Assembly (NCBI GenBank): GCA_964645765.1
Contig: CAZYBE010000007.1
Span: forward strand, 2,644 to 66,643
Source: an uncultured Eubacteriales bacterium
GTDB taxonomy: Bacteria > Acidobacteriota > Aminicenantia > Aminicenantales > Aminicenantaceae
Direction: 5' to 3'
Length of the DNA: 64,000 nucleotides
The notes under the pieces: generated by a model
What the model saw: only the letters and a program-made list of their open reading frames with translations
Database searches by the model: none
Told to the model about the DNA's origin: nothing
Shown: one piece after another, positions 2,478 to 53,122 of the stretch
Position numbering within the stretch: the first letter of the stretch is position 1
Layout: each line of letters starts with the position of its first letter
Translations under genes and position numbers: made by a program

Positions 2478-2955
2478 TAAAGTTACATTTTGATGTGACA
2501 TGGGGATCCCTTTTTTGGAATTACATGGATTAGACAGCCCTATCGACCGTTCGGTTGACGGGCTCTTCAGAATGTCGTACGGCCAGGGAGAGACAAAGTT
2601 GGGACTGCAGAGGAAAGCTTCGCGATCCCCGCGATGACGTGGAGAACCAACACGATCGTCTTGAATCTGGCAGAATATAAGAAATTGGTTTTCGGCTGCG
2701 CTGGCCAAGTGGGCATCTCTGTCTCCGTACGCCCGTTCAATCATCGTGTGGGATTGTAAATCATGACAAAAAAAGATGTCAAGGACAGCTTGGGGGCGCG
2801 GGGTATGTCGGCAAAGCGATCCGAGGCGCCAAAAGTGCCTAAAATCACCCAGACCTCTCCTCCCGAGGAAAGAAAAGGCGATGGACTTCAGATAATCCAT
2901 CCGCTCCTAAAGGATTAAGGCCGATTTTCCGGCTGAGGAGAAGTATTCCCCTGGC

Positions 2956-4884
2956 TTATTTTTCCTCTTCTCCATACCTGGAAAGAACATCAGAGTTGAC
3001 CTTGAGGAAAAGGTCGTATCTGATTTTGACACCCCGCTCTTTTCTCAGTTTCAACAAGTAGGAATGGAGAAACTTGTTACTTTCTGCCTCCAGCAGGTTT
3101 TCTTTTTCCTTTTCCTTGTTTTTTTCAAATTCTTCCCGGCTGACTTCTTTTCTGCTCAGGACTTTTATCAGGACATAGCCGTCTTTAAACTCAATGGGTT
3201 CGCTTCCTTCATTCGGTGGGAGAGAAAAAGCCAGCTCATCGACCTTTGAATTCTCGCCGATGACGCCGAGATATTGCCCCCGCTTGTGCTCCTCTCCGGT
3301 CTTGTATTCAATCTTATACTTCTCAGCCAGCTTTTCGAGCGCTGTTGTCTTGAGTTCTACACTAACGTTTTTCATCTTTTCCAGAGCCGCTTCTTTTTTT
3401 CTCAAGCCGACGAGTTCCACGTTGACCTTATCCTCCACTTCATCAAAATTTGCCAGACGCGACGCCTCGACCTTTTCCAGCTCAACAATTCCCACCCCTC
3501 GGTAAGTAAAGATGGGAGAGGAAATCTGCTTCTCTTTGAGTTGGAAGAGGGTGTTGCTGATCATGCCTGAAGAGTCAACGTCTTCAAAGGTATCACCCTC
3601 TTTGAGGAGGCCTGTGGTTTTGATTTGAAAGCCATCTTTTTTTGCAGCGGCACCGAGGATTTTTTCTTTTCGAGCATCTTTCTCTAAGTCGGAAATCCTC
3701 TGTTCAGCCATCTCTCTTGCTTTCTGGTCTTGGAGGATGCTTTGGACCTTGTCTTTGACCTCCTCAAGGGGCCTGGTGAAAGAAGGCTTTTTTTCTGTAA
3801 CTTTAAGGATGGAGACGCCATCATCGAGTTCTAGAATGTCAGATGTTTCACCCCCGGAAAGCCTTTCAATTTCCTTCTGCTCTTGGGAAGATAAAGTCTT
3901 CCACTCATAAAGCCCCCAGTCTCCATTTTCCATGGCTTTTTTATCCTTGGAGTTTGTCTTTGCCAACGCGGCGAAGTCTTCGCCTTTTCGAATTTTCTCC
4001 AGGATGCTCTTGGCTTCTGCCGCGACGAGTTCCTTTTGTTTGTTTTCATAGGGAAGATAGATTCTGCTGACTCTCACTCTTTCTGGTTCCTGGAATTGAG
4101 ACAGGTTCGCTTTATAGTATTTCTCAATTTCTGACTTGAGGATTTTGACTTCCTTTTTTAGGCCATCCGTATTGAGGAAAACCAGGTTTCCTTCTCTTCT
4201 TTCAGGAATTTTGTAATTCTCTTTGTTCTTGTCAAAATATTCCCTGACTTCACTCTCCTCAGGCTCTTTTTTAATTTCCATCTTGTCTGTTTCGATGACG
4301 GCATATTCGATCTTGGCCGATTCATTATTATTTTTATAGCTTTTCCAGACCTCTTCCGGAGTGACGACGATTCCAGCCGTGACGACCTTGAGGAGCTTAT
4401 TTATAATGATTTCCTTTCTCAGGCTCTCTTCGAATTGATCGGTTGAAAGACGACTCCAATTCAGAATTCTCTTGTATTCTTCAAAGCCGATGAATTTTCC
4501 GTCCCTCTGGAACATAGTTTTTATTCTATCCCGAATTTCATCGTCCGAAGCTTGGATTCCCATAGCTCGAGCCGCCTGAAGGAGGAGATTCTGCTGGATG
4601 ATCTCCTCCAGGACCTGCTGGGGGATGTTGAGCTGTTGGATCAGATTTCTGTTGAGGTCTTTGTATTGTTCTTTTAAAGCTTCAAGCTTATCTCTGAGGG
4701 TTTGGAAGTATAAATCTTTTGAGATTTTTTTCCCGCCGACGCTGGCAAGAGTCGAGGGGCCTGCTCCTTTTCCCAATTGTTGCCCGCCTCCCCAGACAGC
4801 GAATATGGCGATGATGAAGACAGCAATCACTATCCATAAGGCAGGAGCCAAGAGCTTGAAGTGTTTTCTCATTGCTTTTAGCAT
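2956..4884 (-). CDS. ppiD: Periplasmic chaperone PpiD (peptidyl-prolyl isomerase D-like)
   Basis: 642 aa with an N-terminal membrane anchor (MLKAMRKHFKLLAPALWIVIAVFIIAIF), a SurA-like N-domain and a parvulin-like region. Position next to the acyl-CoA dehydrogenase gene in the operon. Confidence 0.8.
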   Translation of the reverse strand: MLKAMRKHFKLLAPALWIVIAVFIIAIFAVWGGGQQLGKGAGPSTLASVGGKKISKDLYFQTLRDKLEALKEQYKDLNRNLIQQLNIPQQVLEEIIQQNLLLQAARAMGIQASDDEIRDRIKTMFQRDGKFIGFEEYKRILNWSRLSTDQFEESLRKEIIINKLLKVVTAGIVVTPEEVWKSYKNNNESAKIEYAVIETDKMEIKKEPEESEVREYFDKNKENYKIPERREGNLVFLNTDGLKKEVKILKSEIEKYYKANLSQFQEPERVRVSRIYLPYENKQKELVAAEAKSILEKIRKGEDFAALAKTNSKDKKAMENGDWGLYEWKTLSSQEQKEIERLSGGETSDILELDDGVSILKVTEKKPSFTRPLEEVKDKVQSILQDQKAREMAEQRISDLEKDARKEKILGAAAKKDGFQIKTTGLLKEGDTFEDVDSSGMISNTLFQLKEKQISSPIFTYRGVGIVELEKVEASRLANFDEVEDKVNVELVGLRKKEAALEKMKNVSVELKTTALEKLAEKYKIEYKTGEEHKRGQYLGVIGENSKVDELAFSLPPNEGSEPIEFKDGYVLIKVLSRKEVSREEFEKNKEKEKENLLEAESNKFLHSYLLKLRKERGVKIRYDLFLKVNSDVLSRYGEEEK

Positions 4885-12656: not shown

Positions 12657-12704
12657 CTTAAACTAGAGCTATTTATAACATAAGAATGGCTTGGAGTAAA
12701 CTGT

Positions 12705-12925
12705 AAAAGCTGAATGGCTCTAAAACACGCCGCTTTTGCCCCAGCAAGCGAAGGCAGGGTGGTGAGAAAGCCGTGTGAAAGGCTGAGCGGGCATGGTTCC
12801 TCGACCGAAGGGAGAGGAGAGCGAAGCCTTGAACCGAGCCGCTTTTGCCTCGCCGGGGCAAAAGCGGCGTGCTTTCTCACCACCCTGCCTGAGCCATTCA
12901 AACGGTTTTCTCGCCATTCAGCTTT
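12705..12925. repeat. Structured intergenic repeat element, copy A (nested inverted repeats, MITE/REP-like)
   Basis: Terminal inverted repeat AAGCTGAATGGCTC / GAGCCATTCAGCTT. Inner arm CCGCTTTTGCC occurs three times (two direct, one inverted). The core GAAAGGCTGAGCGGGCATGGTTCCTCGACCGAAGGGAGAGGAGAGCGAAGCC is shared with the copies at 21.4, 26.4 and 53.0 kb. Confidence 0.6.
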
Positions 12926-12994
12926 TCCAGTTTATGAGATGAAAAAGGATTATGAAATTTTTTGCAAAAAAAGTTGCCTGTCCTCTTTTTTAGA

Positions 12995-17708: not shown

Positions 17709-17972
17709 GAGTCTTCTCCAAATTTGATATTGTCTAAATTAAGGATTCTTTTGAATTGAGGGGAAGATTGATAATTGAATTATGAAATTTATAATTCCTC
17801 CTCTTAACTTTTAATATAAATAATATAAAAAATAAAAATTATTAACACTTTTTTATAACAGATATTCATTATTCTTGTCAAGAATTCGTGTTATTTAAAG
17901 TTGAAAAGTGTTATTTATGTTATTTAAAGTTGAATTCGAGGACGAATTCGAGGACGAGGACAAAAAGAATTC

Positions 17973-18001
17973 TTGACAGTGAATAGGAATTAGCCATAAT
18001 T
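17973..18001 (+). promoter_or_regulatory. Putative sigma-70 promoter for speH (TTGACA-N16-CATAAT)
   Basis: TTGACA at 17973-17978 and CATAAT at 17995-18000, about 30 nt upstream of the speH ATG. Embedded in an AT-rich region with direct and inverted repeats. Confidence 0.35.
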
Positions 18002-18029
18002 ACTTCCAAACTGTCCGAGGAGAAGAAGG

Positions 18030-18485
18030 ATGACAAAAAAGATTCACCGAGCCATAGGCCATCATTATATCGTCGAAGCATCCGGATGCGACCCCGAGGT
18101 GATCAGCAGCGTCGACAAAGTCCAGCAGATCTTGGTCAAAGCTGCAGAAATTGCCGGAGCTCAGGTCTGGTCTATTTCTGTCAACAGGTTTCCTCCTAAG
18201 GGAGTCAGTGGAGTCATCGTCATTTCTGAGTCTCATATTTCCACCCACACCTGGCCAGAATACAGGTATGGAGCTCTGGACTTTTACACCTGCGGCAGTT
18301 CTGTTGATCCAGAGAAGGCGGTGTTCTATGCTGTCGAAGCTTTTGGTGCCACGACTTCTCACGTCACGGAGATCACACGAGGAATTGAGGAAGGAGACAA
18401 AATTTTTTACCACAGCTTTATCACTTGGGAAGAGGATTTTGTCACCGAGAAAAAAAAGAGAATAGATGCCAAGAAGTTAAGCTAA
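18030..18485 (+). CDS. speH: S-adenosylmethionine decarboxylase proenzyme (class 1, SpeH type)
   Basis: 151 aa. ESHISTHTWPE self-cleavage/pyruvoyl motif. Confidence 0.85.
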   Translation: MTKKIHRAIGHHYIVEASGCDPEVISSVDKVQQILVKAAEIAGAQVWSISVNRFPPKGVSGVIVISESHISTHTWPEYRYGALDFYTCGSSVDPEKAVFYAVEAFGATTSHVTEITRGIEEGDKIFYHSFITWEEDFVTEKKKRIDAKKLS

Positions 18486-18762
18486 GATTCCAGAGAATAT
18501 TTCAAAATTCCCGGCTTCCTCCCTTCAGCTCTCTCTGTTAAGTTTCTTTACAATTTACGACTCATCATAATCCAACCTTGAATAAAATTCTGAGGGAATT
18601 CCCCAAAACAGGACGTTCATCTTTTGATTCAAATGGCATAAAAATTGCTATTTTTAGTCGAGGGCCAAAGATGAAGCTTATGGAAGGATGGGAGAAATCG
18701 AAACTTAGATTTCCTATTTTTTTAATAGATTTTCTTAAATTTGATATAATAAAAATAGAACA

Positions 18763-21372
18763 ATGAAAAAAAGATTCATCATTCAAGCCTTTGCTTTTTT
18801 GCTCCTTTTCCTTCTCTTAGCCTTTGAAGCTCGCTCGCAGGAAGATGCTGCGACCGGGCTGGTCGCTCAGATGCAAAAGTCCTTGAACGAGAGAGACATT
18901 CCGGCTTACCTGGAGAATTTCGAAGAGGAGCTCAGGGCCAAAGAGGAGGCAAGCATAAAAAGCAGGTTCGATCAATTCCTGATGGACAGCGTGACTTTGT
19001 ACAAAGCCGGGAAGCTGAGCCAGACCGCAGATGAAACAAAAATATTTCTTCAGGCTCTGTTTCAGAACTCTTTTTCAGTGATTATTGAAAACTGGCGGCT
19101 GAGCCTCATCGAGGTGGATGGACGATGGATGGTCAGCAAAAAGGACATCGTCGGGAGCGTCTCCACCCTTTATAAAATCAAAATCCCCTCTGAAAGGGCT
19201 GAAAGAGTCATGTCGATTGAAATCGAGCACGTGGATATGAAGCTCGTCTTTAAAGATGCCCTCGTCTTTTTTGACAACATTCCTGAGCTGGAAACAGCCT
19301 TGCTCGTCGTCGGTAAAGGTCATGTAACTTTTACTCCTTCAGACCCCGAAGAAAGACACCAGCTTGACCTCATCTATAAAAAAAGCTCTCTTGACGATGA
19401 GCTCTCCTGTGCCTATCTCAGGTTCTCCAGCTATTTTTTTCAGAATAACATCAGGATTGAAAAAGGCAAGGATGACCGCCAGGTTTCTGATTTAGAAAAA
19501 AACAACGCCTATTCTCTTTTTTCCAGGCATTATCCCAATTCCTTCACTATCGAACATTCCCTCAACAAGGAGCTGTATTCGACCTTGCCTCAAGGAGAAG
19601 AGGCTGCCATTGATTTTAATGGAAAGAAGTATGGGAACCTGACCTATATCTATACCCCTTTTTCAGATGAGGAGGTCCATCTTTATCGCTGGAAAGATGA
19701 GAAGATCATCAGCCTCTATTCGCCTTTCGTCGAAGACAAAAAGAAGAGAATGGTTGTGACTTTTGGCGAGATGTTCAATGTCACGAATTATAAAATTGAT
19801 GTTGATTTTAATCCCACGCAGTCTTTTCTTTCTGGAAAAGCAGAAGTTGAGATCAAGCCTAAGGTGGACTCCCTGGAAAGAGTCAAGCTTAAATTGAACT
19901 CCAAATTCGAAATTCTTCGTATCTATGACCAGGAGATGAATGAGCTTTTTTACAGCCGGGATAAATTGAGAGAGCTTCTTTATATTTACTTCATCAACCC
20001 TCCTTCTCGAGAGAGGCCTTGCACGATTGAGATTTTTTATCGAGGGAAAATTTCGCTTCCCGCGCAGGTTGAAGATTCCGTCAACCCCTATCAAGAGCAA
20101 CGCGAATCCCTTGTCTTCATTCCTCCAAAGTTTGACAGTTATCTCTTCACTCGACGCTCCTACTGGTATCCTTCTCCTTCAGATGATGATTATTTTACGG
20201 CAAGGTTGAGAATCATTGTTCCACCCGGATACAGCTGTGTTTCTAATGGTGATTTGATTGAGCAGGGCAAATTGGATAGAGCGGAGAGAGTCGAGGAAGT
20301 GGACAAAGTGGGGAGCTCTGTTTATATCTTCGAGACAAAATATCCTCTGAAATATCTCTCTTTTATTGTCGGAGACATCACCAAAGTCAAAGAAGATTCA
20401 GGCTCTCTCCCGCTCCAACTCTACTCCTCCTCTGAAATCTATTTTCAAAAGAGGGGCCTTGTCGAGGACGCCAAAAGGATTATTCAATTCTATGAAAGCA
20501 AGTTTGGGCCTTTTCCGTATGAGAAGTTGGGAATTGTCCAGAGAAATTGGTCTTCTAGCGGAGGGCACTCCTCCCCTTCCTTTATCGTTCTCAACGAGCT
20601 GCCCCAAGTCGCAGAAGGAGGGCATTATGTCAGTGTCCGGAGCCCCGTCGACCTCTCCCGCTGGAAAGAATATTTCATCGCTCACGAAATCGCCCACCAG
20701 TGGTGGGGGCAAGCTGTCACCTGGAAAACCTATCATGACCAATGGCTGAGCGAGGGATTGGCTCAATTTGCCGCGGCTCTCTATTTGAGAGAAAGCCATG
20801 GCCAGGACGCTTATTCCATTATCCTCAAGAGGTTCTCTCTATGGACGGAAAAATATTCAAAATGGGGTCCCATCAGCCTGGGCTCTCGCCTCAGCCTTTT
20901 TAATTTCAATGCTTACCAGTCCATCATTTATAACAAAGCTTCTCTGGTGTTAAATCTGCTTAAAGATTTTCTGGGCGAGGAAGTTTTCTTTGGGGGATTA
21001 AGAGAATTTTTTGAAAAATACAAATATAACACAGCCGGCACCCGAGATTTTCAGAGAATCATGGAAAATGTTTCAGGAAAAGACCTGACAATTTTCTTCA
21101 AGCATTGGTTTTCGTCCTATCTTCTTCCGGAACTCAAAGTTGCCCATTCTGTGAAAAAGGAAAAGGATGGATTGGTCCTGGAAGTCAGAGTGACCCAGCT
21201 CAGGGAGCAATTTGTTTTTCCGCTGTGGATAGAGTGGATGGAGAAGGGAGAGAAAGTCAGGAAAGTGCTCATTGTTGATGACAAGACTAAGGTTTTTGAG
21301 TTTAGGTTAGGGGAAAAACCGCAGAAGATAAGAGTGAATCCTGATAAAGCCCTGCCAGGAAAATTGTTATAG
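18763..21372 (+). CDS. Secreted M1-family zinc aminopeptidase (aminopeptidase N-like)
   Basis: 869 aa with a signal peptide. HEIAHQWWG ... WLSEGLAQF zinc-binding HExxH-x18-E signature. Confidence 0.8.
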   Translation: MKKRFIIQAFAFLLLFLLLAFEARSQEDAATGLVAQMQKSLNERDIPAYLENFEEELRAKEEASIKSRFDQFLMDSVTLYKAGKLSQTADETKIFLQALFQNSFSVIIENWRLSLIEVDGRWMVSKKDIVGSVSTLYKIKIPSERAERVMSIEIEHVDMKLVFKDALVFFDNIPELETALLVVGKGHVTFTPSDPEERHQLDLIYKKSSLDDELSCAYLRFSSYFFQNNIRIEKGKDDRQVSDLEKNNAYSLFSRHYPNSFTIEHSLNKELYSTLPQGEEAAIDFNGKKYGNLTYIYTPFSDEEVHLYRWKDEKIISLYSPFVEDKKKRMVVTFGEMFNVTNYKIDVDFNPTQSFLSGKAEVEIKPKVDSLERVKLKLNSKFEILRIYDQEMNELFYSRDKLRELLYIYFINPPSRERPCTIEIFYRGKISLPAQVEDSVNPYQEQRESLVFIPPKFDSYLFTRRSYWYPSPSDDDYFTARLRIIVPPGYSCVSNGDLIEQGKLDRAERVEEVDKVGSSVYIFETKYPLKYLSFIVGDITKVKEDSGSLPLQLYSSSEIYFQKRGLVEDAKRIIQFYESKFGPFPYEKLGIVQRNWSSSGGHSSPSFIVLNELPQVAEGGHYVSVRSPVDLSRWKEYFIAHEIAHQWWGQAVTWKTYHDQWLSEGLAQFAAALYLRESHGQDAYSIILKRFSLWTEKYSKWGPISLGSRLSLFNFNAYQSIIYNKASLVLNLLKDFLGEEVFFGGLREFFEKYKYNTAGTRDFQRIMENVSGKDLTIFFKHWFSSYLLPELKVAHSVKKEKDGLVLEVRVTQLREQFVFPLWIEWMEKGEKVRKVLIVDDKTKVFEFRLGEKPQKIRVNPDKALPGKLL

Positions 21373-21414
21373 TTCCCTTTGAGTTAGGCCCTTCCCCCAG
21401 GCTTCGTATTGTAA

Positions 21415-21700
21415 GGCGAAGGCGGATTGCTTCGAGAGCCGTATGAAAGGCTGAGCGGGCATGGTTCCTCGACCGAAGGGAGAGGAGAGACCTTGGAGGG
21501 GGAACCGCTTCGCGTTCCCCCTTCCAACGCTTCTGCTGCCTCCCCTTCTCGGACGCTTAAAAGCGTCCTGCGACCAAGGGGTCATACCCCCTTGGAACCC
21601 CCGCTGCTTTGCCGATGGGCAAAGCAGCGAAGCCTTGAATCGAGCCGCTTTTGCCTCGCTGGGGCAAAAGCGGCGTGCTTTCGAAGCAATCCGCCTGAGC
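21415..21700. repeat. Structured intergenic repeat element, copy B (extended, with four extra hairpin modules)
   Basis: Termini GGCGGATTGCTTCGA / TCGAAGCAATCCGCC. Shares the core GAAAGGCTGAGCGGGCATGGTTCCTCGACCGAAGGGAGAGGAGAG and the GCCGCTTTTGCCTCGCTGGGGCAAAAGCGGCGTG arm hairpin. Internal insert carries the hairpins GGGGGAAC/GTTCCCCC, GGACGC/GCGTCC, CCAAGGGG/CCCCTTGG and GCTGCTTTGCC/GGCAAAGCAGC. Confidence 0.6.
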
Positions 21701-21704
21701 CGAT

Positions 21705-23090
21705 TCAGGAGAGATTGGTGATATCGATATGCAGCCTTTTAATCATCTCATTCAGGGTGGTGGGCTTGACTCCCAAGAGGCTGGCAGCCTTTTTCTGAAC
21801 TCCTTTTGACTTGGCCAAGGCACTGATGATGGCTTTTTTCTGGAGGGATTGAATGTGTTCCCTGAGAGTGTGCTCGTTATCGGCCTGGGAGAATATTTTT
21901 TTCTCATCTTGAGAGGATAAGAGGAAAGGGGGAAGACTCTCTCTGCTGATGATTTTGGACTTGGTCAGGACAACGGCTCTCTCAATCAGGTTTTCCAATT
22001 CTCTGATGTTTCCCGGCCAGTTGTAGTTGATGAAAATTTCCATCACGTCTTCGGTGACACCAGTGATTTCTTTTTTGTTTTCTTTTCCGTAGATCGTGAG
22101 AAAATGTCTGACAAGAAGGGGAATATCCTCTTTTTTTTCCCGGAGCGGCGGGAGCACGATTTTTATGACATTCAGTCGGTAGAAAAGGTCTTGGCGGAAT
22201 CTCTTCTGTCCGATCAGCTCTTCCAGGTCGGCGTTGGTGGCAGCGATGACTCTAGCGTCGACTTTGATCGTTTTTGTCCCTCCCAATCTCATGAACTCTT
22301 TTCCCTGCATCACCCGCAGCAACTTCGCCTGGGTCTCTGGATTGAGGGAGGATATTTCATCAAAAAAGATTGTTCCTCTGTCAGCTGCCTCGAAGAGGCC
22401 CTGTTTATGACTGACAGCTCCGGTGAAGGCTCCTTTGACATGGCCGAAGAGGTGACTTTCCAGAAGGTCCGGCGGAAGGGAGCCGCTGTTGACGATGATG
22501 AAGGGGAATGCGGCCCGGTCGCTGTTTTGGTGGAGGGCTCTTGAAACGAGTTCCTTTCCTGTCCCGCTTTCGCCTTCGAGCAAAATGGTGCTTCGAGTCG
22601 GGGCAACGGCTTTTATCACCTCGAAGACGTCCTGCATGACTTTGCTTTTTCCGATGATATTTTCAAAGCTGAACTTCCTTTTGAGCTCGTCTTTCAAGCG
22701 GAGGTTTTCTTCCTGGAGTTTTTTATGCTCCAATGCTCTTTTGACCGTCAAGAGCAGCTCATCATGCTTGAAAGGCTTCTGGACGTAATCAAAGGCTCCG
22801 CTCTTCATCGCTGAAATGGCTGATTCCACGGAGGCGTAGGCGGTGATGATGATGATGGCGGCCTGGGGGTCAGCCTTCCTCAGATTTTTAAGGACTTCTA
22901 TTCCATCCAGTCCAGGCATGAGCAGGTCCAGAAGAACGAGGTCAAAAGGCTGGGAAGCGTGCTTTTCAAGAGCCACTTCGCCGCTCAGGGATTTTTCAAC
23001 TTCATAGCCTTCAGAGGTTAAGAGCTCTCCCAGAACTTCATGGATGATTTGCTCGTCATCGATGATGTGGATTTTCTCTTTTTTTTCCAT
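21705..23090 (-). CDS. Sigma-54-dependent response regulator (NtrC/PilR-like)
   Basis: 461 aa. Receiver domain, AAA+ sigma-54 interaction domain (GESGTGKE, GAFTGA) and C-terminal Fis-type HTH. Confidence 0.85.
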   Translation of the reverse strand: MEKKEKIHIIDDEQIIHEVLGELLTSEGYEVEKSLSGEVALEKHASQPFDLVLLDLLMPGLDGIEVLKNLRKADPQAAIIIITAYASVESAISAMKSGAFDYVQKPFKHDELLLTVKRALEHKKLQEENLRLKDELKRKFSFENIIGKSKVMQDVFEVIKAVAPTRSTILLEGESGTGKELVSRALHQNSDRAAFPFIIVNSGSLPPDLLESHLFGHVKGAFTGAVSHKQGLFEAADRGTIFFDEISSLNPETQAKLLRVMQGKEFMRLGGTKTIKVDARVIAATNADLEELIGQKRFRQDLFYRLNVIKIVLPPLREKKEDIPLLVRHFLTIYGKENKKEITGVTEDVMEIFINYNWPGNIRELENLIERAVVLTKSKIISRESLPPFLLSSQDEKKIFSQADNEHTLREHIQSLQKKAIISALAKSKGVQKKAASLLGVKPTTLNEMIKRLHIDITNLS

Positions 23091-23092
23091 TT

Positions 23093-25975
23093 TTATGCTG
23101 CCGAAATTTTATTCGTTTTTTTCTTGTCCAGATCCTTTGGAATATATATGGTGAAGAGAGAGCCTTTTCCCCGTTCGCTTTCCACAGTGATCTGTCCTTC
23201 ATGCTCTTTAATGATGGCATAGCTGATGGAAAGGCCGAGGCCAGTCCCTTTCCCCAGTCCTTTGGTGGTAAAGAATGGGTCAAAGATATGTGGCAAGTGC
23301 TGGTCCTTGATCCCGGTTCCTGTGTCCTCAATTTTTATCATGGCCTGGTTTGAATTCTCGCTGAGCGAGATTCTCAGAGTCCCGCCGTTGGGCATGGCAT
23401 CGATGGCGTTGAGGATGATGTTGATGAAGACTTGTTGGAGCTGTTCTCCCTGTGCCCAGAGGGGCCGAAGCTTCTCAAGTTTCAACTCCAGATTGATATT
23501 CATCGTTTTCAGCTTGTATCTAATCAGGGAGACGATCTCCTGCAGGTTGTCCTTGAGGTCAACTTTATGGAAAGATGATTCTGAAGGATTTCGAGCAAAG
23601 TTGAGGAGGTTTTTGATGATGCTGGCCACTCTTTCAGTTTGGGCTTCAATCTTTTCCAGGATTTGGCCATGAGGAGATTTGGAGAGCTTCTTCTGAAGGA
23701 TCTGGACATAGCTTGAAATTCCGGTCAAGGGCGTATTGATTTCATGAGCAACACCAGCAGAGAGGAGACCGATGGAAGCAAGTTTCTCTGAAGTCAGCAG
23801 CTGCTGCTGGAGAGATATTTTTTCTGTTATTTCCTCAAAGACGACGACCGTCCCGTAAGGGTTCATTCTGTTATCGAGGAGTGGAGTCTTGGCGATGTCG
23901 AATATTTTTTTCTCATTGGGTGCTATATCCAGGGTGATTTCGCTCAAGAGGCGAAAATCCTGCTGGCTTTCAAGAGGAAAGAGGGCTGAGAAATTTTTCG
24001 CTCCCAAGACTTCCATCAGAGTTTTGTTCACGACGATTTCTTTTTTCAGAGAAAAAGTTTCCTCAAGCACCCGATTCCAGCCAATGATTCTTCCTTGCTG
24101 GTCAAGGACGGCGACTCCAACAGTCAGGCTTTCGATGATGTTCTCGCTGTAATCTTTGAGCCTTCCCAGTTCCATGGCCCTGATGCTGGCCTGGTCGTAG
24201 AGATAGGCGTTTTCAAGGGCTAACGCCACTGGGGAAGAAATGGTGGTGAGAAGCTCCCAATCTTCGCTGTTGAGAAACCTGTTATCAACTTTCTTGCCCA
24301 TGGCCAGACAGCCGATGATGTTCTCTTCGACTTTCAAAGGCAAGTAATGGAAATAGGTCGAGGAGGAAAGACTTTCAAAATTCTTCTGGAGTTCTTTTCG
24401 CTCGGCAAAAGAATAAGAGGAAAGAAACTCTTTTTCTTTCAGCTCTTGATAGAGAGAGTCGTCAAAAGTAATTTTGTCTTCGCTCGACGACGATTGCCCT
24501 CTGGATTTCAGGATGGAGAATGAATTTTTTTCAGCGTCCACTGGAAGGAGAAGGGCTATGCACTTAAGAGAGAGGGCGTTGGCAATCAATTCCAGGAGAG
24601 ATTGGGAGAGTTTCTGGAGATTTCTCTCTCGACTGAGTTCTTTGCTTATCGAAAGAAGAGTCTTTCGGTATTGATAAGTCCTTTTATAAAAAGCCCTGTC
24701 CAGGATGGACTGGAAAAGTTTTTTCAACGGGGTGAAAAGCGTTGCCCCCAGAATAATGGCCAGGATTCCTAAAAAGAAAGCGTTGAGCTTGTTTTCGAGT
24801 GAAATTTTTGTCTGGGAAGTGGCGATGAAATAGATGATGGCCAAGATCACAGAGGAGGAAACCAGGGTCACGGCCTTCTTGAGAAGGAGCTCAAAATCCA
24901 TCAGCCTGTGCCTGGAAATGGAGTAGGAGAAAGTCAGAGGAATGAGGGCCTGGAGGATGACGGTGAGTTCCGCTGCTCTGGAAGGAATATGATTGAAGAG
25001 GAAAGGAATGATGTAGAAAAGGGTGAAGGGAATGATGCCAAGGCCGAGACCGTAGGCAATCCACCTCAGCTGTTTTTTGACCATCAGGTTTGAAGGCATG
25101 ACCGTGCTGTGGAGGATGGTCAACAAGGTCGCGATGGAAAAGATGGCAAAGTGGAGAAGACCCAGCTTCTCCGATGTGTCATGCAAACCGAGCATGAGGA
25201 CATCACTTGAATTCCGGAACATAGGAAGATGGAAGGATATTTTTAGCAAGAGAAGGGCTAAGCCAGGAAGGTAAAGGAAGAAGATTGAAGACGGCTTGGT
25301 TTTTAAAAATATTTTTCTTTGAGGGAAGATAGTGAAGAAATGAAGGAGTAGAGGAGGGAAGACCAGAAAGGAGATGCTGTCAAGCCAGTAGAAAAGGCTA
25401 TCCAGCTTGTCGAGCCTTCCTGTGGAAGAGAAGACGTCAAAGGAGTAAAAAACCAAAGAGATGAAGTAGAAGAAAACGTAAGGCATGGTAAAGGGCTTCT
25501 TTGAATTGATGAAAACAATCAAGCCTATGACCAGCGTGGTTAAGCCGATGAAAGCCAGAAAGAAGTAGATGACATTGACCCGTTTCTGCGCCAGATAGAA
25601 GGAGGGCGGGATGAGCTCTCCTTCTCTGATAATTTGGTATCTGACTTTTTGATTCGGGCTTGAAGCTTGCCATAGATTCTTTGCCAACTCTATTTTGTTT
25701 TTGACGGGATTGTTGTTGATGGATAAGAGGACGGTTCCTTTCTTGATGCCGTTCAAATAGCCAGGGCTATTGACATCAACTTTAATTGCGGTCAAACCTT
25801 GGGGTCTTTCGTCCCAGATAACGCCATCTGTCGGCTCTGTCCAAGTCGCCTTTTTATAGACATTCAGTCCACCCAATAGGAGAAGGATGAGGACGAAAAG
25901 CATGGCCGTGGAAATTTTGATTTTCTCCAGGAAGTTCTTTCTCCCTTTTTCTGATAATCCAAAAAATTGAATCAT
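23093..25975 (-). CDS. Multi-domain sensor histidine kinase (PilS-like partner of the sigma-54 regulator)
   Basis: 960 aa. N-terminal periplasmic and polytopic membrane region, GAF/PAS-like domains, HisKA (HEINTPLTGI) and HATPase_c (GTGLGLSI). Confidence 0.8.
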   Translation of the reverse strand: MIQFFGLSEKGRKNFLEKIKISTAMLFVLILLLLGGLNVYKKATWTEPTDGVIWDERPQGLTAIKVDVNSPGYLNGIKKGTVLLSINNNPVKNKIELAKNLWQASSPNQKVRYQIIREGELIPPSFYLAQKRVNVIYFFLAFIGLTTLVIGLIVFINSKKPFTMPYVFFYFISLVFYSFDVFSSTGRLDKLDSLFYWLDSISFLVFPPLLLHFFTIFPQRKIFLKTKPSSIFFLYLPGLALLLLKISFHLPMFRNSSDVLMLGLHDTSEKLGLLHFAIFSIATLLTILHSTVMPSNLMVKKQLRWIAYGLGLGIIPFTLFYIIPFLFNHIPSRAAELTVILQALIPLTFSYSISRHRLMDFELLLKKAVTLVSSSVILAIIYFIATSQTKISLENKLNAFFLGILAIILGATLFTPLKKLFQSILDRAFYKRTYQYRKTLLSISKELSRERNLQKLSQSLLELIANALSLKCIALLLPVDAEKNSFSILKSRGQSSSSEDKITFDDSLYQELKEKEFLSSYSFAERKELQKNFESLSSSTYFHYLPLKVEENIIGCLAMGKKVDNRFLNSEDWELLTTISSPVALALENAYLYDQASIRAMELGRLKDYSENIIESLTVGVAVLDQQGRIIGWNRVLEETFSLKKEIVVNKTLMEVLGAKNFSALFPLESQQDFRLLSEITLDIAPNEKKIFDIAKTPLLDNRMNPYGTVVVFEEITEKISLQQQLLTSEKLASIGLLSAGVAHEINTPLTGISSYVQILQKKLSKSPHGQILEKIEAQTERVASIIKNLLNFARNPSESSFHKVDLKDNLQEIVSLIRYKLKTMNINLELKLEKLRPLWAQGEQLQQVFINIILNAIDAMPNGGTLRISLSENSNQAMIKIEDTGTGIKDQHLPHIFDPFFTTKGLGKGTGLGLSISYAIIKEHEGQITVESERGKGSLFTIYIPKDLDKKKTNKISAA

Positions 25976-25999
25976 GTTGGCAAAAAATATATGGATGGC

Positions 26000-26275
26000 T
26001 TAGTCTAAGATATGTCTTTTTCCAGCTCTCACCGCCCATTTTGCGCTGGACTGCTTCAGAAGCTTCTTCAACGTCAAATCTTCTTTTAGCCCCAGAGGGT
26101 TTGTGTTTCTGGAGAGAAAGGTGCTCATATAGTCGTAATTGGGTTTTTTGGCCGGAGCGGTCTGAGGCTCAGGCGCTGAGTTTTTCGAAAGGGATAATCC
26201 CTTTAAGGCCAGGCTCTTATAGAAAAAGGCGAGGAGGAGAAACAGGAGGACAACCACCCAAATCTTTTTTTTCAC
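26000..26275 (-). CDS. Small hypothetical secreted protein
   Basis: 91-aa ORF with a hydrophobic signal-like N-terminus (MKKKIWVVVLLFLLLAFF). No recognisable domain. Confidence 0.3.
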   Translation of the reverse strand: MKKKIWVVVLLFLLLAFFYKSLALKGLSLSKNSAPEPQTAPAKKPNYDYMSTFLSRNTNPLGLKEDLTLKKLLKQSSAKWAVRAGKRHILD

Positions 26276-26341: not shown

Positions 26342-26586
26342 GGAAAACCGCGTTATGGCTCAGGCTGGGTGTTTCGAAAACACGCAGGCTTTGCATCACC
26401 AAGCTAAGGCAGAGTGGCGAGGAAGCCGTGTGAAAGGCGGAGCGGGCACGGTTCCTCGACCGAAGGGAGAGGAGAGCGAAGCCTTGAACCGAGTCGCTTT
26501 TGCCTCGCTGGGGCAAAAGCGGCGTGCCTTCGAATCACTCTGCCGGAGCCATTCAAACGGTTTTCTTAAACACCCAGCCTGAGCCT
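26342..26586. repeat. Structured intergenic repeat element, copy C
   Basis: Termini GGCTCAGGCTGGGTGTTT / AAACACCCAGCCTGAGCC and GAAAACCG / CGGTTTTC. Same core and CCGCTTTTGCC arm hairpin as copies A, B and D. Confidence 0.6.
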
Positions 26587-26804
26587 TTCACATCACGGAT
26601 TCGTGGATGGTTCCAATATATGGCAGCAAGTGACTTTTTTGATTGGGCAGAAAAAATAAACAATAAGGTTCATTTTAAATTAAATATCACCTCTTTAGAG
26701 TATATAAAACTCACCTTAAAAGCTGATTGACTTATTCTATATATATTTAATAAAATTACATTTAAAATAGATAAAAATACAGAGTTTTTGAAAATAGCCG
26801 CGGG

Positions 26805-26892
26805 AAAAAAGGGGACAGTCCCTTTTTTTCGTCGCGGTGTCGTGTCATTGTAGCGACCATATATAAAAAAGGGGACTGTCCCCTTTTCTGAG
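26805..26892. terminator. Two tandem A-run/GC-palindrome/T-run hairpins (AAAAAAGGGGACAGTCCCTTTTTTT and AAAAAAGGGGACTGTCCCCTTTT)
   Basis: Palindromes flanked by A and T tracts in the AT-rich region upstream of pilC. They have the form of bidirectional intrinsic terminators. A related GGGGACAGC..GCTGTCCCC hairpin occurs at 52214. Confidence 0.35.
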
Positions 26893-38482: not shown

Positions 38483-39076
38483 TTGGCGATGAGAAAAAAG
38501 ATGGGATTCGATGGAAAAAAGGAGAAGGGGTCGGCTCTGGTCGTTGTGCTCCTTGTTCTTGCCTTTTTACAGATTGTCGGAATTGTGCTTTTAACGGTGA
38601 CGAGCAGTGGACCGAAAGTCGCTGAGAACGTGCGGGCACAGCAGCAGGCATCCAATGCGGCTGAGGCAGGTTTTGATGCTGTCTGGGCAAGCATTGAGGA
38701 GCTTTTTGCCCTGGGCACATGGGTCAACTTTGACGGACATTATTTCGTTGAGCCGACAGGCATCGACAATCCTCAGTCGAGCAATTACTTCAGAAAGTTA
38801 ACCGATGCAGAAATTTTGAGCCTGATCGACCCTGACGGAGACAAGAATCCTAATTTAAACAATGTCTATTGCTTTCGCCAGTCTTTCATTCAAAAGACTG
38901 ACGGCTCAGCGGATACCCGATTTTCCTTCACTGCCTTTTTTATCGATGACGAGGCCGGAGGCGGTGTGTCCGAGCCTGAGGATGCTCTTCTAGTCTGCAT
39001 CGGGGTTGTCGAGATGGGGAAAAACATCACAACGACAAGGATTGAAGTTGAGGTTGTCCTTGAATCAGGGACATGA
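38483..39076 (+). CDS. pilX: PilX-like minor pilin
   Basis: 197 aa. N-terminal hydrophobic helix (GSALVVVLLVLAFLQIVGIVLL). Position between pilW and pilY1. Confidence 0.5.
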   Translation: MAMRKKMGFDGKKEKGSALVVVLLVLAFLQIVGIVLLTVTSSGPKVAENVRAQQQASNAAEAGFDAVWASIEELFALGTWVNFDGHYFVEPTGIDNPQSSNYFRKLTDAEILSLIDPDGDKNPNLNNVYCFRQSFIQKTDGSADTRFSFTAFFIDDEAGGGVSEPEDALLVCIGVVEMGKNITTTRIEVEVVLESGT

Positions 39077-39098
39077 GCTATAGATAAAGAGGTGAAAG

Positions 39099-42000
39099 AT
39101 GAGTAAAAAAACAAAAACTTTTATGCTGTCCATTCCTTTAATTATAATTCTCTTCATCGCTATCTGCGTCTTCAGCCCGAGATTCTGGGCTCAAGAGACG
39201 TGCACTGAATACACCTCCACCTTCACCGAGGATTTTCACAACGACGCCTACAAGGACAAAACATACTCCTCTGTATCCTTCTGGCCGCCCGGACCAGTGA
39301 CTCTTGGCTGGCTTGGCGGACAATTAGCAATCTCCCAGCCGGCGGGGATGGGAGCCAAGATTCTGGTCTGTGATAGCGGTGACTTTACCGGCGACGGCTT
39401 GCCTGATTTAATAGGCTATGATATCAGCTTGCATACCGAATTGGACAAAACGAAAGGAAGATTAGTCCTTGTCAGGAATAAATTTGTGGATGCTAATAAA
39501 GATGGAGCCGACGATGATGGAGTCATTTTTCAAATCGATACAACAAAAATTTTCGACACGAATATAACAGGCGAGGTCGCTTCCATTACTGTCGGAGATT
39601 ATAACGGCGACGGACTTCTCGATTTTTTCTTTTGCATCAACAATCGAGACGATGCCGTTTTTAGTAGTACTTTTCGTGCTGTCATGTATATTAATTACGG
39701 GTCGGCTACTGACCCGAAATTCAAAGTGTACACCCAATCCCCCAACCTTAATTTCACAACGAAGTTCAAGAATGCCTTTATCTATATCCGCTGGTTGGGT
39801 GACCATATGTCTTCTGTGGACATCGACAAGGACGGAGATAAAGACATCCTCTTTGTCAGCCAGGATAAAATCTTTGTGGTCAGAAACCCGGGTAAAAGTA
39901 ATTGGAGCCTCAACAATTTTACAATCTCTGAGCTCAGTTATAACCAGCGTCCGGGCTTTCCCACCGGCGCACTCATGGGCGGTTCGGCCATCGAAGCCGC
40001 TGACTTCGACCGTGACGGAAACCTGGACGTCGTGGTCGGCTCAGTCGAGTGGGTTGACCATCTTGTTTATTATTCGAATGACGGCACAGGAAACTTTACC
40101 CGCTATGTCATTCCCATTACCGACAGCAGCTGTATCGGCACGACCGGCATTACTGCTGGAGACTTCAATAACGACGGCCTAATGGACCTCATGTGCTCGA
40201 ACGACCAATGGCGCACTCTCAATCTGGCCAGGCTTTACATGTACAAGAATAAAGGGAATATTGGAGGAGGCGGCATTCCTGTCAATTTCGAGTTTAAGTG
40301 CTGGAACGACTGTAACCCGATCAATCCCCCCATATACGATGATGACGTTATCGTTGCCGTTGATGTTGACAGTGACGGTGATATGGACATAATCACCGCA
40401 GATGCCAACGACTCTGGCAACTATTTCATGTTCACCAACGGATTATCTAACGTTTACACCCTGTTTGGCGAAGCCCGCTCGACCAACATCAGGGCCGGAC
40501 TGGATGAGAATCTCTATGCCGTGACCAAGGCCAAGATTAAAAACCTTCGCCAGGGAATCAAGGGGGGGTCTAGTTCCGGGCTTAAGATCACCTTCTACCT
40601 GTCGAATAACGGCTTGGATTGGGAGCTTTTCGCCACTTACGAAGGCTCTAATATCCATGATTACTCAGACCTTCCCGTCCACAAATTCGAGCACTTCGGC
40701 TCGAAGCTTTTCTGGAAGGCGGTGATGAGCGCTCCCGAAGACCCGATGTCAGACTTCGACAGTGCTTCCTATGATTCCCCTTGCATTTCCTCGATTGAGT
40801 TTGAGTGTATTCATGTCGAGCGGAAAGAGTATTCTCGGACATCAGCGGCGGCAACATATGTCGATTATAGAGGAAGCACCAGGAACTGTGTCATCGGCAG
40901 CTCATTCTACTACCCTGGCTGGCAGGGTCATTTAAGGGCCTACGATGTCTCCGCGATGACTCCTGAGAATTCGCCGTATTCTGTGCTGCGGACGGTCACC
41001 CAGTCAAACTTCTCTTCTCCGACAGGGAGAGAGATCCTGGTCGAGGGAGTTGAGATTCTATGGGATGCCGGGCAGCTTTTGAATCTCCGCTCGGCTGACG
41101 ATAGAAAAATCTACACCGCTATTCCTTCAGGGGAAAGATTGACGAGAGTCGATTTCACTGAGAGCTATGTCGATACTTTAGGGCCGATCATAAAGGATGT
41201 GAACAACGATAATGCGGCGCTGATCAACTTTGTCCGGGGCGCAGGCCGCAACTGGAAGTTGGGGGACAGCAACCACTCCACTCCGGTGGTCGTCGGCCCT
41301 CCGGAAGAGAATGCTTCGATGATGGGGAGCGGATACCAGAAGTTCAAGGATGACTTGAAGGAGCGGCACAAAGTCCTTTACCTCGGCGCCAACGACGGAA
41401 TGCTTCACTGCTTTGATATCGTCACTGGTGAAGAATTGTGGGCCTTCATACCCTACAACCTGCTGCCCAAATTGAGGAACATGTGCGACATTATTCCCGA
41501 TACTGGAGAGAGAACGTACATCAGGGATACTTATGTCGACGGCAGCCCGACTGCTGCCGATGTTTATGTCGACGCCACTGGAGACGGTATAAAAGAATGG
41601 ATTACTATTCTTGTCTGCGGTCAAGCTCAGGGTAAAGGAAGCACACTTGGCGGTGGATTGAACTATTATTTTGCTCTTGATGTCACCGACCCCAATATCC
41701 CCAAGCCTCTCTGGGAGTTTAAAGATAGCGCGATGGGTGAGACCTGGTCAGTTCCAGAGATCGGCAAAGTCCTCAAGGGAGGCAACATCACCTGGGCGGG
41801 CTTTGTCGGCTCAGGCTACGATAACGACAGCGACCATGTTGTCGGCAATCGATTCTATGTTGTTGACCTGGAGACCGGCAGCTCCTTCTGGAGTTTTACC
41901 GATTCTGGAGTCGATACCAGGACAAAACACGGCTTCACCTGGGATATTCAGAATGCCTTTGTGAGCTCTCCCTCCATAATGGACGTTGACCAGGATGGCC

Positions 42001-42716
42001 GTGTCGACCGCGTCTATTTTGCCGACCTTGACGGCCGAGTCTGGAGAGCAAATGTGAGCGCAGATTTTCAAAACGAAAGCTCCTGGTCGGCAACAAAAAT
42101 CTATGAAGATGCAAAGAATTTCCCGATTTCGAGCAAGCCTGCGGCCTTGATGAAATCCGGCGGATATCCCAGGATTTATTTCGGGACAGGCGGGGATGAT
42201 ACGGCTCCGAGCGATGTCAAATATTCCTTTGTCGCCCTTATCGATAAGGCGACTCCTGAAGTGGAGTGGTATCTCGGCGACCCGCTGCTCCTCAATCTTC
42301 CTGTCAGCAAACGTTCGGGCGTTTTAGACGCTGGCGAGAAAGTGTGGGGTGACCCGGTTATAGCCAATTCCGTCTGCTATTTCAACACCTTGAAAGGAAA
42401 CATAGAGAGCGTGGACCCCTGCGAAAACATCATCGGAGTCGGGAAACTTTACGCCAGGTATGTCGAGTCAATCGCAGGAGCGATTTTCGGAGCAACCGCT
42501 CTCAAAATTGAAACAGGGCCTACTGAGTCTCTTCAGCTTGAGATCAAAACCAGGGCTGCTGTGACTCTGGGTGAAAGGCAGACAACAGGGAGCGGGGTCA
42601 GGAAGAGGGCAGTCTACATTCAAGAATACAATTCGACCATCCAGAAGATGGAGCAGGCGGTCCTTTCTTCATTGAAAATCAGGTCGTGGAGAGAGATTTT
42701 CAGGATTATGAAATAA
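39099..42716 (+). CDS. pilY1: PilY1-like pilus tip adhesin, paralog 1 (N-terminal FG-GAP repeats plus C-terminal PilY1/PilC beta-propeller)
   Basis: 1205 aa with a signal peptide. Repeated FG-GAP/integrin-alpha-like motifs (TVGDYNGDGLLDFFF, ADFDRDGNLDVVVGS, AGDFNNDGLMDLMCS, DVDSDGDMDIITAD). C-terminal hallmark VLYLGANDGMLHCFDIVTGEELWAFIPYN and a Ca-binding-type loop DVDQDGRVD. Confidence 0.75.
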   Translation: MSKKTKTFMLSIPLIIILFIAICVFSPRFWAQETCTEYTSTFTEDFHNDAYKDKTYSSVSFWPPGPVTLGWLGGQLAISQPAGMGAKILVCDSGDFTGDGLPDLIGYDISLHTELDKTKGRLVLVRNKFVDANKDGADDDGVIFQIDTTKIFDTNITGEVASITVGDYNGDGLLDFFFCINNRDDAVFSSTFRAVMYINYGSATDPKFKVYTQSPNLNFTTKFKNAFIYIRWLGDHMSSVDIDKDGDKDILFVSQDKIFVVRNPGKSNWSLNNFTISELSYNQRPGFPTGALMGGSAIEAADFDRDGNLDVVVGSVEWVDHLVYYSNDGTGNFTRYVIPITDSSCIGTTGITAGDFNNDGLMDLMCSNDQWRTLNLARLYMYKNKGNIGGGGIPVNFEFKCWNDCNPINPPIYDDDVIVAVDVDSDGDMDIITADANDSGNYFMFTNGLSNVYTLFGEARSTNIRAGLDENLYAVTKAKIKNLRQGIKGGSSSGLKITFYLSNNGLDWELFATYEGSNIHDYSDLPVHKFEHFGSKLFWKAVMSAPEDPMSDFDSASYDSPCISSIEFECIHVERKEYSRTSAAATYVDYRGSTRNCVIGSSFYYPGWQGHLRAYDVSAMTPENSPYSVLRTVTQSNFSSPTGREILVEGVEILWDAGQLLNLRSADDRKIYTAIPSGERLTRVDFTESYVDTLGPIIKDVNNDNAALINFVRGAGRNWKLGDSNHSTPVVVGPPEENASMMGSGYQKFKDDLKERHKVLYLGANDGMLHCFDIVTGEELWAFIPYNLLPKLRNMCDIIPDTGERTYIRDTYVDGSPTAADVYVDATGDGIKEWITILVCGQAQGKGSTLGGGLNYYFALDVTDPNIPKPLWEFKDSAMGETWSVPEIGKVLKGGNITWAGFVGSGYDNDSDHVVGNRFYVVDLETGSSFWSFTDSGVDTRTKHGFTWDIQNAFVSSPSIMDVDQDGRVDRVYFADLDGRVWRANVSADFQNESSWSATKIYEDAKNFPISSKPAALMKSGGYPRIYFGTGGDDTAPSDVKYSFVALIDKATPEVEWYLGDPLLLNLPVSKRSGVLDAGEKVWGDPVIANSVCYFNTLKGNIESVDPCENIIGVGKLYARYVESIAGAIFGATALKIETGPTESLQLEIKTRAAVTLGERQTTGSGVRKRAVYIQEYNSTIQKMEQAVLSSLKIRSWREIFRIMK

Positions 42717-42843
42717 GAATGTCTTCTTCGTTGCCCATTCTAGGCCGTTTTTTTTGCCAAAGCAAAGAGTCGTCAAAAATCAAGATTAAAAGTCTGGGTT
42801 GTGCTTGAACGAGGGATGCGAGTTATAGTAAAAGAGGTAAAAA

Positions 42844-52977: not shown

Positions 52978-53122
52978 GAGGCTCAGGCTGAGTAGTTAGA
53001 AAACACGCCGCTTTTGCCCCAGCGAGGCAAAAGCGGCTCGGTTTCAGGCTTCGCTCTCCTCTCCCTTCGGTCGAGGAACCATGCCCGCTCAGCCTTCAAA
53101 CGGTTTTCTAACTACTCAGCCT
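52978..53122. repeat. Structured intergenic repeat element, copy D (short form, inverted orientation)
   Basis: Termini GGCTCAGGCTGAGTAGTTAGAAAAC / GTTTTCTAACTACTCAGCC. Contains the CCGCTTTTGCC arm hairpin and the core in reverse complement. Confidence 0.6.

Follow-up and report, generated by a model that had tools for sequence, protein, structure and literature searches.

The hairpin array that fills the spacer between two convergent genes at 21.4-21.7 kb of a 64,000-nt stretch of bacterial DNA (contig CAZYBE010000007.1 of an uncultured Eubacteriales bacterium; the whole stretch is called the window here) raises the question of how it arose and what it does. The spacer measures 332 nt and nearly all of it is occupied by one repeat copy, copy B (21412-21701). 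A preliminary description of the sequence had taken this copy for a composite of separate hairpin modules, comparable to the mosaics of repetitive extragenic palindromic (REP) sequences known as bacterial interspersed mosaic elements (BIMEs), and had proposed a role as bidirectional terminator or stability element. The analysis indicated that copy B is a member of a repeat family of about 145 nt, denoted H, which is split at 21490-21627 by a 138-nt block belonging to a different repeat family, denoted M. Nested insertion of M into H is considered the probable explanation of copy B, though by no means a certain one, and the two families are best read as nested, non-autonomous, site-specific repeats acting as single strands.

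The key comparison was made with a sister metagenome-assembled genome (MAG), whose locus L010 is syntenic with window positions 17963-26070 over about 8 kb at 82-87% identity. The orthologous spacer holds the same H sub-variant as copy B (CGTATGAAAGG...TTGAATCG) with exactly 138 nt missing and with the adjoining core identical. Because the L010 copy is uninterrupted at this point, the limits of M were set at 21490-21627; the limits 21488-21625 fit equally well owing to a 2-nt AG ambiguity. The extra DNA that had been put at ~150 bp is thus real, with a size of 138 bp. The view of copy B as a composite also held, in that DNA was inserted into an H core that L010 carries without it, but the hairpins of the insert are not independent modules. 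The polarity of the event depends on this one sister genome and on parsimony, most H copies being without M. The terminal stems of the two orthologous H copies were observed to be ~60% identical, the spacer flanks ~80% and the cores 100%, and both stems pair; the divergence of the stem reflects either rapid compensatory evolution or gene-conversion replacement by another family member.

The hairpins of M were searched for in the window and in 600 kb of related genome loci, first by a mismatch-tolerant scan for each hairpin and then with an nhmmer profile built on the entire block. No M hairpin was found singly in this material, and the block recurred whole, in six occurrences that all lie inside H copies. 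Absence of the single hairpins elsewhere had been fixed beforehand as the result that would speak against a mosaic of separate modules, and so that interpretation fails. The comparison with BIME/REP mosaics survived in part: palindromic units do nest in these genomes, but the four hairpins form one unit. At two related loci (L031 and L052) M occupies the same host position as in copy B and in the same orientation; their H sub-variants differ, and the different P1 stems and junction variants suggest that these insertions were independent. The same placement in the H core was seen at the metagenome loci L175 and L182, and a diverged M lies in the loop of the H 3' hairpin, in the opposite orientation, at L019, L041 and L073.

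The wider distribution of M was obtained by scanning metagenomes for its two invariant linkers, CTGCCTCCCCTTCTCGG and CCTGCGACC, separated by a gap of 6-20 nt, which returned at least 120 loci. At all of these the four M hairpins occur together and the linkers are invariant. The counts for context, alignment and covariation refer to the copies among the matches listed, 121 of which were evaluable. Of these, 39/121 are free-standing elements of ~170-190 nt with the left flank GTCAA(C) and the right end ...CGTCAA(C), 22/121 lie in the loop of the H 3' hairpin in the opposite orientation, 4/121 have the placement of copy B, within the H core, and 56/121 are in other contexts that include diverged H-like and K-like repeats (K being a third family, described below). 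Tandem arrays of M were found at L197, L128, L137, L157 and L089. The members measure 138-190 nt and contain four or five hairpins, whose order was fixed among the matches listed: H1, (H1b), linker, H2, CCTGCGACC, H3, AWCCCC, H4. H1 and H4 stand at opposite ends, and the termini are not inverted copies of each other. The predicted pairs are retained in 93% of cells, with both sides changed in 12/26 pairs and 0/500 shuffles matching these values. H1 and H3 keep their pairing through compensatory changes (U-A 78 / C-G 18; G-C 58 / A-U 36), and in H2 and H4 the sequence is replaced entirely with the hairpin retained.

The insertion sites indicated specificity in the placement of M. When the nested copies are read along the favoured strand of M, the flank is identical: the core site reads GGCTTCGC^TCTCC on the H minus strand (reverse complement of GGAGAGCGAAGCC) and the 3'-hairpin site reads GGCTTTGC(C)^TCGCTGG on the H plus strand. 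The motif GGCTTYGC^TC, as seen on the favoured strand of M, has two occurrences in H, one per strand, of which one lies in the core (GGAGAGCGA^AGCC) and the other in the 3'-hairpin loop. Its presence on each H strand accounts for the two nested positions and for the opposite orientations of M at them. The flanks of M are constant, namely GTCAA in the 39 free-standing copies among the matches listed and AGCGA/GGCTTYGC in the nested copies. The pentamer is repeated beside the element in both classes, with AGCGA on both sides in L031 and L052 and GTCAA on both sides in free-standing copies.

The host family H was analysed in the same manner, using an alignment of 62 uninterrupted copies and a structure drawn by hand for the pairing test, with which RNAalifold agrees. 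A 40-nt core, GAGCGGGCAyGGTTCCTCGACCGAAGGGAGAGGAGAGCGAAGC, is almost invariant in the 62 copies, even where the remainder has fully drifted, and it is kept in GC-rich and AT-rich genomes alike. The terminal stem P1 (19-25 bp) varies in sequence from copy to copy while its complementarity is kept, and the 3' hairpin covaries, with tandem G.A mismatches recurring among the copies. Pairing is found in 90% of cells, against 33-48% when the 3' partner is slid; both sides are changed in 31/51 pairs, and 0/500 shuffles match the observed values. In P1 (helix 1) 18/22 pairs have changes on both sides, and in the 3' hairpin (helix 5) 10/12 pairs have compensatory changes. A tertiary pairing of AGCGA in the core with UCGCU in the 3' loop may also exist. 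The 20-mer of the core matched 81 loci in a collection of species-representative genomes. Three related MAGs with the label 'uncultured Eubacteriales' hold ~20-30 exact-core copies each, and more H copies were found in several MAGs, some of which are GC-rich, that bear the label Candidatus Aminicenantes; all taxonomic statements on the hosts of H and M depend on these labels. H and M contain similar conserved stretches (CCTCGACCGAAGGG and CCTGCGACCAAGGG), the alignment of which is not significant. Common ancestry of the two families was rejected, as local alignment scores were no better than for shuffled sequence.

The two strands of each element were found to differ in their folding. The H plus strand folds more stably in 59/59 copies, and the M strand complementary to TTGGAGG... 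folds more stably in 97/100 copies. The non-Watson-Crick cells in the conserved helices of H(+) comprise 72 G.U (plus 62 invariant), 45 A.C, 192 G.A and 35 pyrimidine-pyrimidine, and those of M in the TTGGAGG orientation comprise 26 G.U, 70 A.C, 13 purine-purine and 85 pyrimidine-pyrimidine. The excess of A.C and pyrimidine-pyrimidine cells on the TTGGAGG strand implies that its complement carries the benign mismatches and is the favoured strand of M. The motif GCGNAGC occurs 66 times in H(+) against 0 in H(-), and 0 times in M in the TTGGAGG orientation against 82 in the complement; C-GNA-G triloops number 190 (+) against 23 (-) in H and 24 against 208 (complement) in M, these strand-asymmetry counts taking in related sequences that are not independent events. 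GCGAAGC, GCGGAGC, GCGAAGGC and CCGAAGG are known as unusually stable DNA mini-hairpins, and such sequences occur in the priming signals of phage G4 and RSF1010 ssiA and in the N4 promoter hairpin (PMC13037366). In copy B the favoured strand of M is antisense to that of H, as is expected if the target and not the function sets orientation. Where M is nested in the most frequent way, in the H 3' loop, its favoured strand is the same as that of H. These strand features, together with the lack of promoters, terminators and orientation bias, make single-stranded DNA (ssDNA) appear a somewhat better candidate than RNA for the form in which H and M are selected.

The architecture of copy B is in accordance with a split H element. 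The P1 5' arm (21412-21439, plus strand) contains the base motif GGCGAAGGC and is followed by the 5' core CGTATGAAAGGCTGAGCGGGCATGGTTCCTCGACCGAAGGGAGAGGAGAG (21440-21489, plus strand), which holds the hairpin P3 (UUCCUC-GA-CC-GAA-GG-GA-GAGGAG). The M unit (21490-21627) has its favoured strand on the minus strand. After it come the 3' strand of P2 with the junction CGAAGCCTTGAATCGA (21628-21643, plus strand), the H 3' hairpin GCCGCTTTTGCC-TCGCTGG-GGCAAAAGCGGC (21644-21655 / 21663-21674, plus strand), which is common to other H copies and whose loop is the second M insertion site in them, and the P1 3' arm (21677-21701, plus strand), which terminates in GCCTGAGCC. Positions 21485-21489 and 21628-21643 together form GAGAGCGAAGCC, the target that M entered. 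The terminal stem P1 pairs 21415-21439 with 21677-21701 (25 nt, 88% complementary). On the plus strand M runs from H1 (21493-21527) through the linker CTGCCTCCCCTTCTCGG (21536-21552), H2 (21551-21568), CCTGCGACC (21567-21575), H3 (21574-21595) and AACCCCC to H4 (21602-21629), the final 2 nt of which also belong to H.

An inverted-repeat scan recovered all four extra hairpins of the preliminary description as perfectly (100%) complementary: H1, AGGGGGAAC/GTTCCCCCT (21497-21505 / 21514-21522); H2, GGACGCTT/AAGCGTCC (21551-21558 / 21561-21568); H3, CCAAGGGG/CCCCTTGG (21574-21581 / 21588-21595); and H4, CGCTGCTTTGCC/GGCAAAGCAGCG (21602-21613 / 21618-21629). The arms of the first needed correction to GGGGGAAC/GTTCCCCC from the GGGGGAACC/GGTTCCCCC claimed earlier, and this hairpin lengthens to TTGGAGGGGGAAC...GTTCCCCCTTCCAA if one bulged T is allowed. 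The membership of copy B in a repeat family, also claimed earlier, was borne out, its 5' and 3' parts recurring in three further copies of the window (4 matches, with 0.03 expected by chance). The fold of the whole copy had z = -11.25 on the plus strand and -10.4 on the minus strand relative to shuffled sequence, and M alone gave -7.6 and -6.6 on the two strands. Since M lies at a junction of H, both elements are still able to fold. The purine tract GAAGGGAGAGGAG of H (21470-21489) was observed to be complementary, with a 1-nt bulge, to the pyrimidine tract CCTCCCCTTCTC of M (21536-21552); this purine tract and the M linker are paired in the predicted fold of copy B.

The other H copies of the window are copies A, C and D. 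Copy D (52983-53126, minus strand) is the simplest, with ~145 nt and a fold z of -8.5. Copy A (12697-12934, plus strand) has an inner H (12748-12892, +) within the remains of an inverted outer H, the arms of which lie at 12697-12726 and 12905-12934, and copy C (26355-26590, plus strand) has the same architecture with its inner H at 26403-26547 (+). In these 'doubles' a complete plus-strand H stands between the 5' and 3' remains of an inverted one, and the outer terminal stem also covaries. The architecture is common to ~20 related loci, which means that the composite has itself multiplied. The use of copy A and L021 as an orthologous pair was dropped, as the two are not orthologous. Many H copies were seen to lie exactly at contig ends of MAG assemblies (e.g. 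L002, L011, L017, L020, L024, L036 and L068), and repeats of this type probably break short-read assemblies.

A third family, K, is represented in the window at 62850-63050 (minus strand; GGCCGTAGCGACCATTGAAGGTTTAGCCTTCCCGAGCTG...TCCGCAGCCGCCGAGAAGGGCGGTGAGGGAACGGCGTTAAAAACCTGATTGGGAGCGAGGCCATT), where it has no H. In L049 and at many loci of the MAG CAZJYC, K carries H in the middle of the element, and M copies were also found beside K-like sequence in metagenomes. Nesting was thus observed as H in inverted H (copies A and C), H in K and M in H. The L049 copy of H with its long extra flanks (K) is absent from the orthologous spacer of 17 nt in L031, and the L060 orthologue of copy D is a chimeric H that is differently nested and rearranged. 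Composites of K with H and the H 'doubles' are themselves multi-copy. Structured repeats in these genomes nest in each other and then spread as composites.

The genomic context of H was examined for signs of a local function. Among 45 copies with both neighbours known, the flanking genes are divergent in 15, convergent in 10 and tandem in 20, so that divergent and convergent placements are about equally frequent; the 20 tandem cases, 8 sense and 12 antisense, show no orientation bias. A location mainly downstream of genes, as described for REP/BIME sequences, was not seen in these 45 copies. No consistent gene stands beside H, the neighbours in GC-rich MAGs being YchF, a SIS domain protein, a proton antiporter and a peroxiredoxin, and a role of H as cis-regulatory RNA was rejected because these adjoining genes are unrelated. 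Flank repeats around H were no longer than in re-paired controls, giving no sign of a target-site duplication. In searches of Rfam a tRNA was the sole match in the whole window; at a permissive threshold the best score for copy B was 26.4 bits against a gathering score of 40, with nothing credible, and nothing credible was obtained for copy D or free-standing M.

Several other identities were considered for the elements and set aside. A likeness of GAGCCGTATG...ATGGTTC in copy B to group II intron domain V was dropped, as its bases vary among copies; hammerhead and other ribozyme cores were absent by inspection; and a 12-codon open reading frame (ORF) in the H core (ATGGTT...TGA) was rejected, as its ATG is ACG or AAG in many copies. 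Integron attC sites were rejected, the copies being scattered among housekeeping genes in both orientations and forming no cassette arrays. A phage origin found no support in a collection of viral contigs, which contained neither the H core nor the M linker.

The convergent arrangement reported for the flanking genes was correct. A Peptidase_M1 gene (18763-21372, plus strand) ends at 21372 with its stop codon facing copy B, and a sigma-54 response-regulator gene (21705-23090, minus strand) ends at 21705 on the other side. The role as bidirectional terminator or stability element proposed from this setting was not upheld. No terminator-like site was found on either strand between 21200 and 21900, no hairpin there being followed by a T-run, and no promoter-like site was found in the spacer region of copy B; in L010 the corresponding convergent gene pair has a spacer without M. 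Copy B thus has no support as a terminator, nothing supports it as a roadblock or RNA-stability element, and its local effect is probably neutral. Canonical terminator-like hairpins of the window look different (AAAAAAGGGGACAGTCCCCTTTT, 26805-26890). Upstream of the T2SS-F gene (26935, plus strand), two copies of AAAAAAGGGGAC(A/T)GTCCC(C)TTTTT lie 60 nt apart at 26805-26830 and 26865-26890, each a short perfect hairpin with an A-run on one side and a T-run on the other, shaped like an intrinsic terminator that acts in both directions; motifs of the GGGGACAGTCCCC type also occur in the unrelated metagenome loci L162 and L183.

Two further observations concern genes elsewhere in the window. The region 39036-46446 is a tandem duplication of a ~3.7-kb gene, with ORFs at 39099-42716 and 42844-46446 of ~1200 aa each and 84-87% nucleotide identity. 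The segments 142-441 and 2946-3245 are the 89% identical 3' regions of adjacent paralogues (ORFs 1002-2900 and 2956-4884, minus strand), of which the related locus L012 seems to carry one copy only.

A mechanism consistent with these results can be proposed. H would have occupied the spacer before the lineages of the window and its sister split, and the 138-nt non-autonomous M would then have integrated into it. H is a long imperfect hairpin in which P1 encloses the near-invariant core and a second, covarying hairpin, and M consists of four or five hairpins in set order with invariant linkers between them; both seem to have been selected, and probably moved, as single strands. Integration of M would be sequence- and orientation-specific at GGCTTYGC^TC, and mobilisation would most likely have taken place in trans by an enzyme that acts on ssDNA and recognises hairpins, as for REPINs, which are mobilised by REP-associated tyrosine transposases (RAYTs), and for IS200/IS605-derived elements. 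The placement of H and M lacks a fixed link to genes and shows presence/absence and rearrangement between sister genomes.

Several points weigh against nested insertion by such an enzyme. The copies have no significant replication-strand bias as judged from the GC skew of their flanks, a bias that IS200/IS605 elements are known to show. Beside H no ORF family recurs, the clustered ORFs giving only spurious repeat read-throughs; no recurring ORF family was found within 2.5 kb of 125 M copies, nor an autonomous copy with tnpA/tnpB; and tblastn with approximate RAYT and IS200 TnpA queries, a weak test, found nothing in 1.5 Mb of loci. The M hairpins abut the ends of the element, and the geometry of IS608 is not closely matched. 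The ends of M are also ambiguous, as the repeated pentamer could stem from duplication of the target or belong to an element end that resembles it; in the second case the tandem arrays of M would be accounted for. With two genomes compared, it is also possible that M was precisely deleted from the lineage of L010 and not inserted here. Lastly, the conservation of the 40-nt core in both GC-rich and AT-rich genomes is greater than is normal for selfish repeats, a hint of some function for the host.

Two alternatives start from RNA and from ssDNA signals. H could be a multi-copy structured non-coding RNA that acts at the RNA level, e.g. as a protein-binding scaffold through the purine-rich GAAGGGAGAGGAG tract, with M as an optional expansion domain or a second RNA and copy B as a variant RNA gene. 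The strong covariation, the core that is near-invariant across distant genomes, the strand-specific G.U and tandem G.A pairs, the complementarity of the M linker CCUCCCCUUCUC to the H core with which it pairs in the predicted fold of copy B, and the coincidence of the favoured strands in the commonest nested type all speak for this reading. However, neither a match in Rfam nor a conserved promoter or terminator accompanies the elements, their 5' flanks are variable, and their orientation is random relative to adjoining genes. Unlike an RNA domain, M occurs at two positions and in both orientations in H and also without H; its favoured strand in copy B is antisense to that of H; instead of GNRA or UNCG tetraloops, the elements have GNA triloops and GCGNAGC motifs, which are typical of stable hairpins in DNA; and orthologous loci hold differently rearranged copies. 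An RNA gene is accordingly judged unlikely. A smaller share of belief goes to H, and perhaps M, being domesticated ssDNA signals that spread through the chromosome because of their use to the host, e.g. as sites of priming or primosome loading or as binding sites for a replication or repair protein. The favoured strands do carry CCGAAGG, GCGAAGC, GCGGAGC and GCGAAGGC as in priming signals (PMC13037366), and the core is near-invariant across a phylum, but the copies are not biased with respect to GC skew or to the direction of genes, copy number and position vary between sister genomes, and the nesting and chimeras resemble selfish spread; domestication of this kind is held to be quite improbable.

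The terminator array of the preliminary description, in which a BIME/REP-like mosaic of separate modules ends or stabilises the mRNAs of the convergent pair, must be set beside these. Copy B sits between convergent stop codons and nearly fills the spacer, its hairpins are very stable on both strands, mosaics of palindromic units do occur in these genomes, and REPs, which stabilise upstream mRNA, provide a precedent for mRNA stabilisation (PMC3733652). Against this stand the absence of a T-run after the hairpins, the four hairpins never found apart, the sister genome that has the gene pair without M, the 15 divergent against 10 convergent placements of H, and a unit size of 138-190 nt with several hairpins, compared with 20-40 bp for REPs; the probability given to it is slight. 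A broader alternative, somewhat speculative and more doubtful than likely, treats H, M and K as a layered system of ssDNA (or RNA) elements found in Aminicenantes-like bacteria alone. In this view H would perhaps be an ancient phylum-wide structured element, its invariant 40-nt core made up of tandem G.A pairs and DNA mini-hairpin motifs, kept for a host or enzyme function, and M a 'parasite of the parasite' homing to GGCTTYGC^TC, a picture that deserves only tentative belief. It is equally doubtful, though conceivable, that the mover is a hairpin-recognising enzyme not yet tied to any repeat family, or that H(+) is a new chromosomal priming-like signal in ssDNA.

With nested insertion of M into H as the preferred reading, the annotation of the spacer is corrected from a terminator array to two nested repeat elements, which offer a clean natural case of site-specific insertion of one structured repeat in another. 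This uncultured phylum contains at least three families of structured intergenic repeats not described before (H, M and K), the strand-specific features of which suggest a biology of single-stranded DNA. Should the enzyme that moves them be found, the model of REPIN/RAYT and IS200/IS605 would extend to larger, multi-hairpin elements free of cargo. The three families are also useful as markers for binning and population genomics, and they are a likely cause of assembly breaks.

The elements were finally compared with known systems. REPINs are long hairpins in which compensatory changes are frequent and which are scattered at random over extragenic DNA (PMC3116915). H resembles the REPIN/REP/BIME group in being extragenic, non-coding and of high copy number with arms that pair through compensatory changes (PMC3116915), in the occurrence of units in alternating orientation with other motifs (H in inverted H, H in K, M in H), and, together with M, in signs of selection at the level of the single strand. 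It differs in size and form, H having ~145 nt with four helices and M 138-190 nt, whereas a REP unit comprises one imperfect palindrome of 20-40 bp; the conserved part of H is central and asymmetric, whereas a REPIN consists of two inverted terminal REPs of 20-40 bp. One end of a REP has, by definition, an unpaired tag, GTAG or CGTC (PMC3733652). By reading of the sequences, no GTAG tag was seen at the H ends (GGCGAAGGC...GCCTGAGCC), and CGTC appeared only in free-standing M, which ends in ...GATCGTCAA, where it is paired within the H4 stem. The preference of REP/BIME sequences for sites downstream of genes is also not shared by H.

The likeness of M to miniature IS200/IS605 elements lies in the lack of terminal inverted repeats with hairpins at both ends, the tandem arrays expected if an end recreates the target, the strand asymmetry, and, as far as the ambiguous repeated pentamer allows, the insertion beside a constant pentamer (GTCAA, AGCGA) in one orientation with no clear target duplication. 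The differences are that the hairpins of M abut its ends and are not 10-20 nt inside, that its best-conserved flank is placed ambiguously on the favoured strand, and that its conserved middle (linkers, H2 and H3) has no counterpart in known members. Nested miniature inverted-repeat transposable elements (MITEs) and the pneumococcal BOX, ERIC and Correia/NEMIS repeats are similar in that they too are small, structured and intergenic, are inserted in each other or built of modules, and propagate as composites. Classical MITEs differ, as the terminal stem of H varies and has no target-site duplication and M has no inverted termini. On this comparison of sequence, structure and placement, H and M are filed outside every named family, as structured, non-autonomous interspersed repeats.

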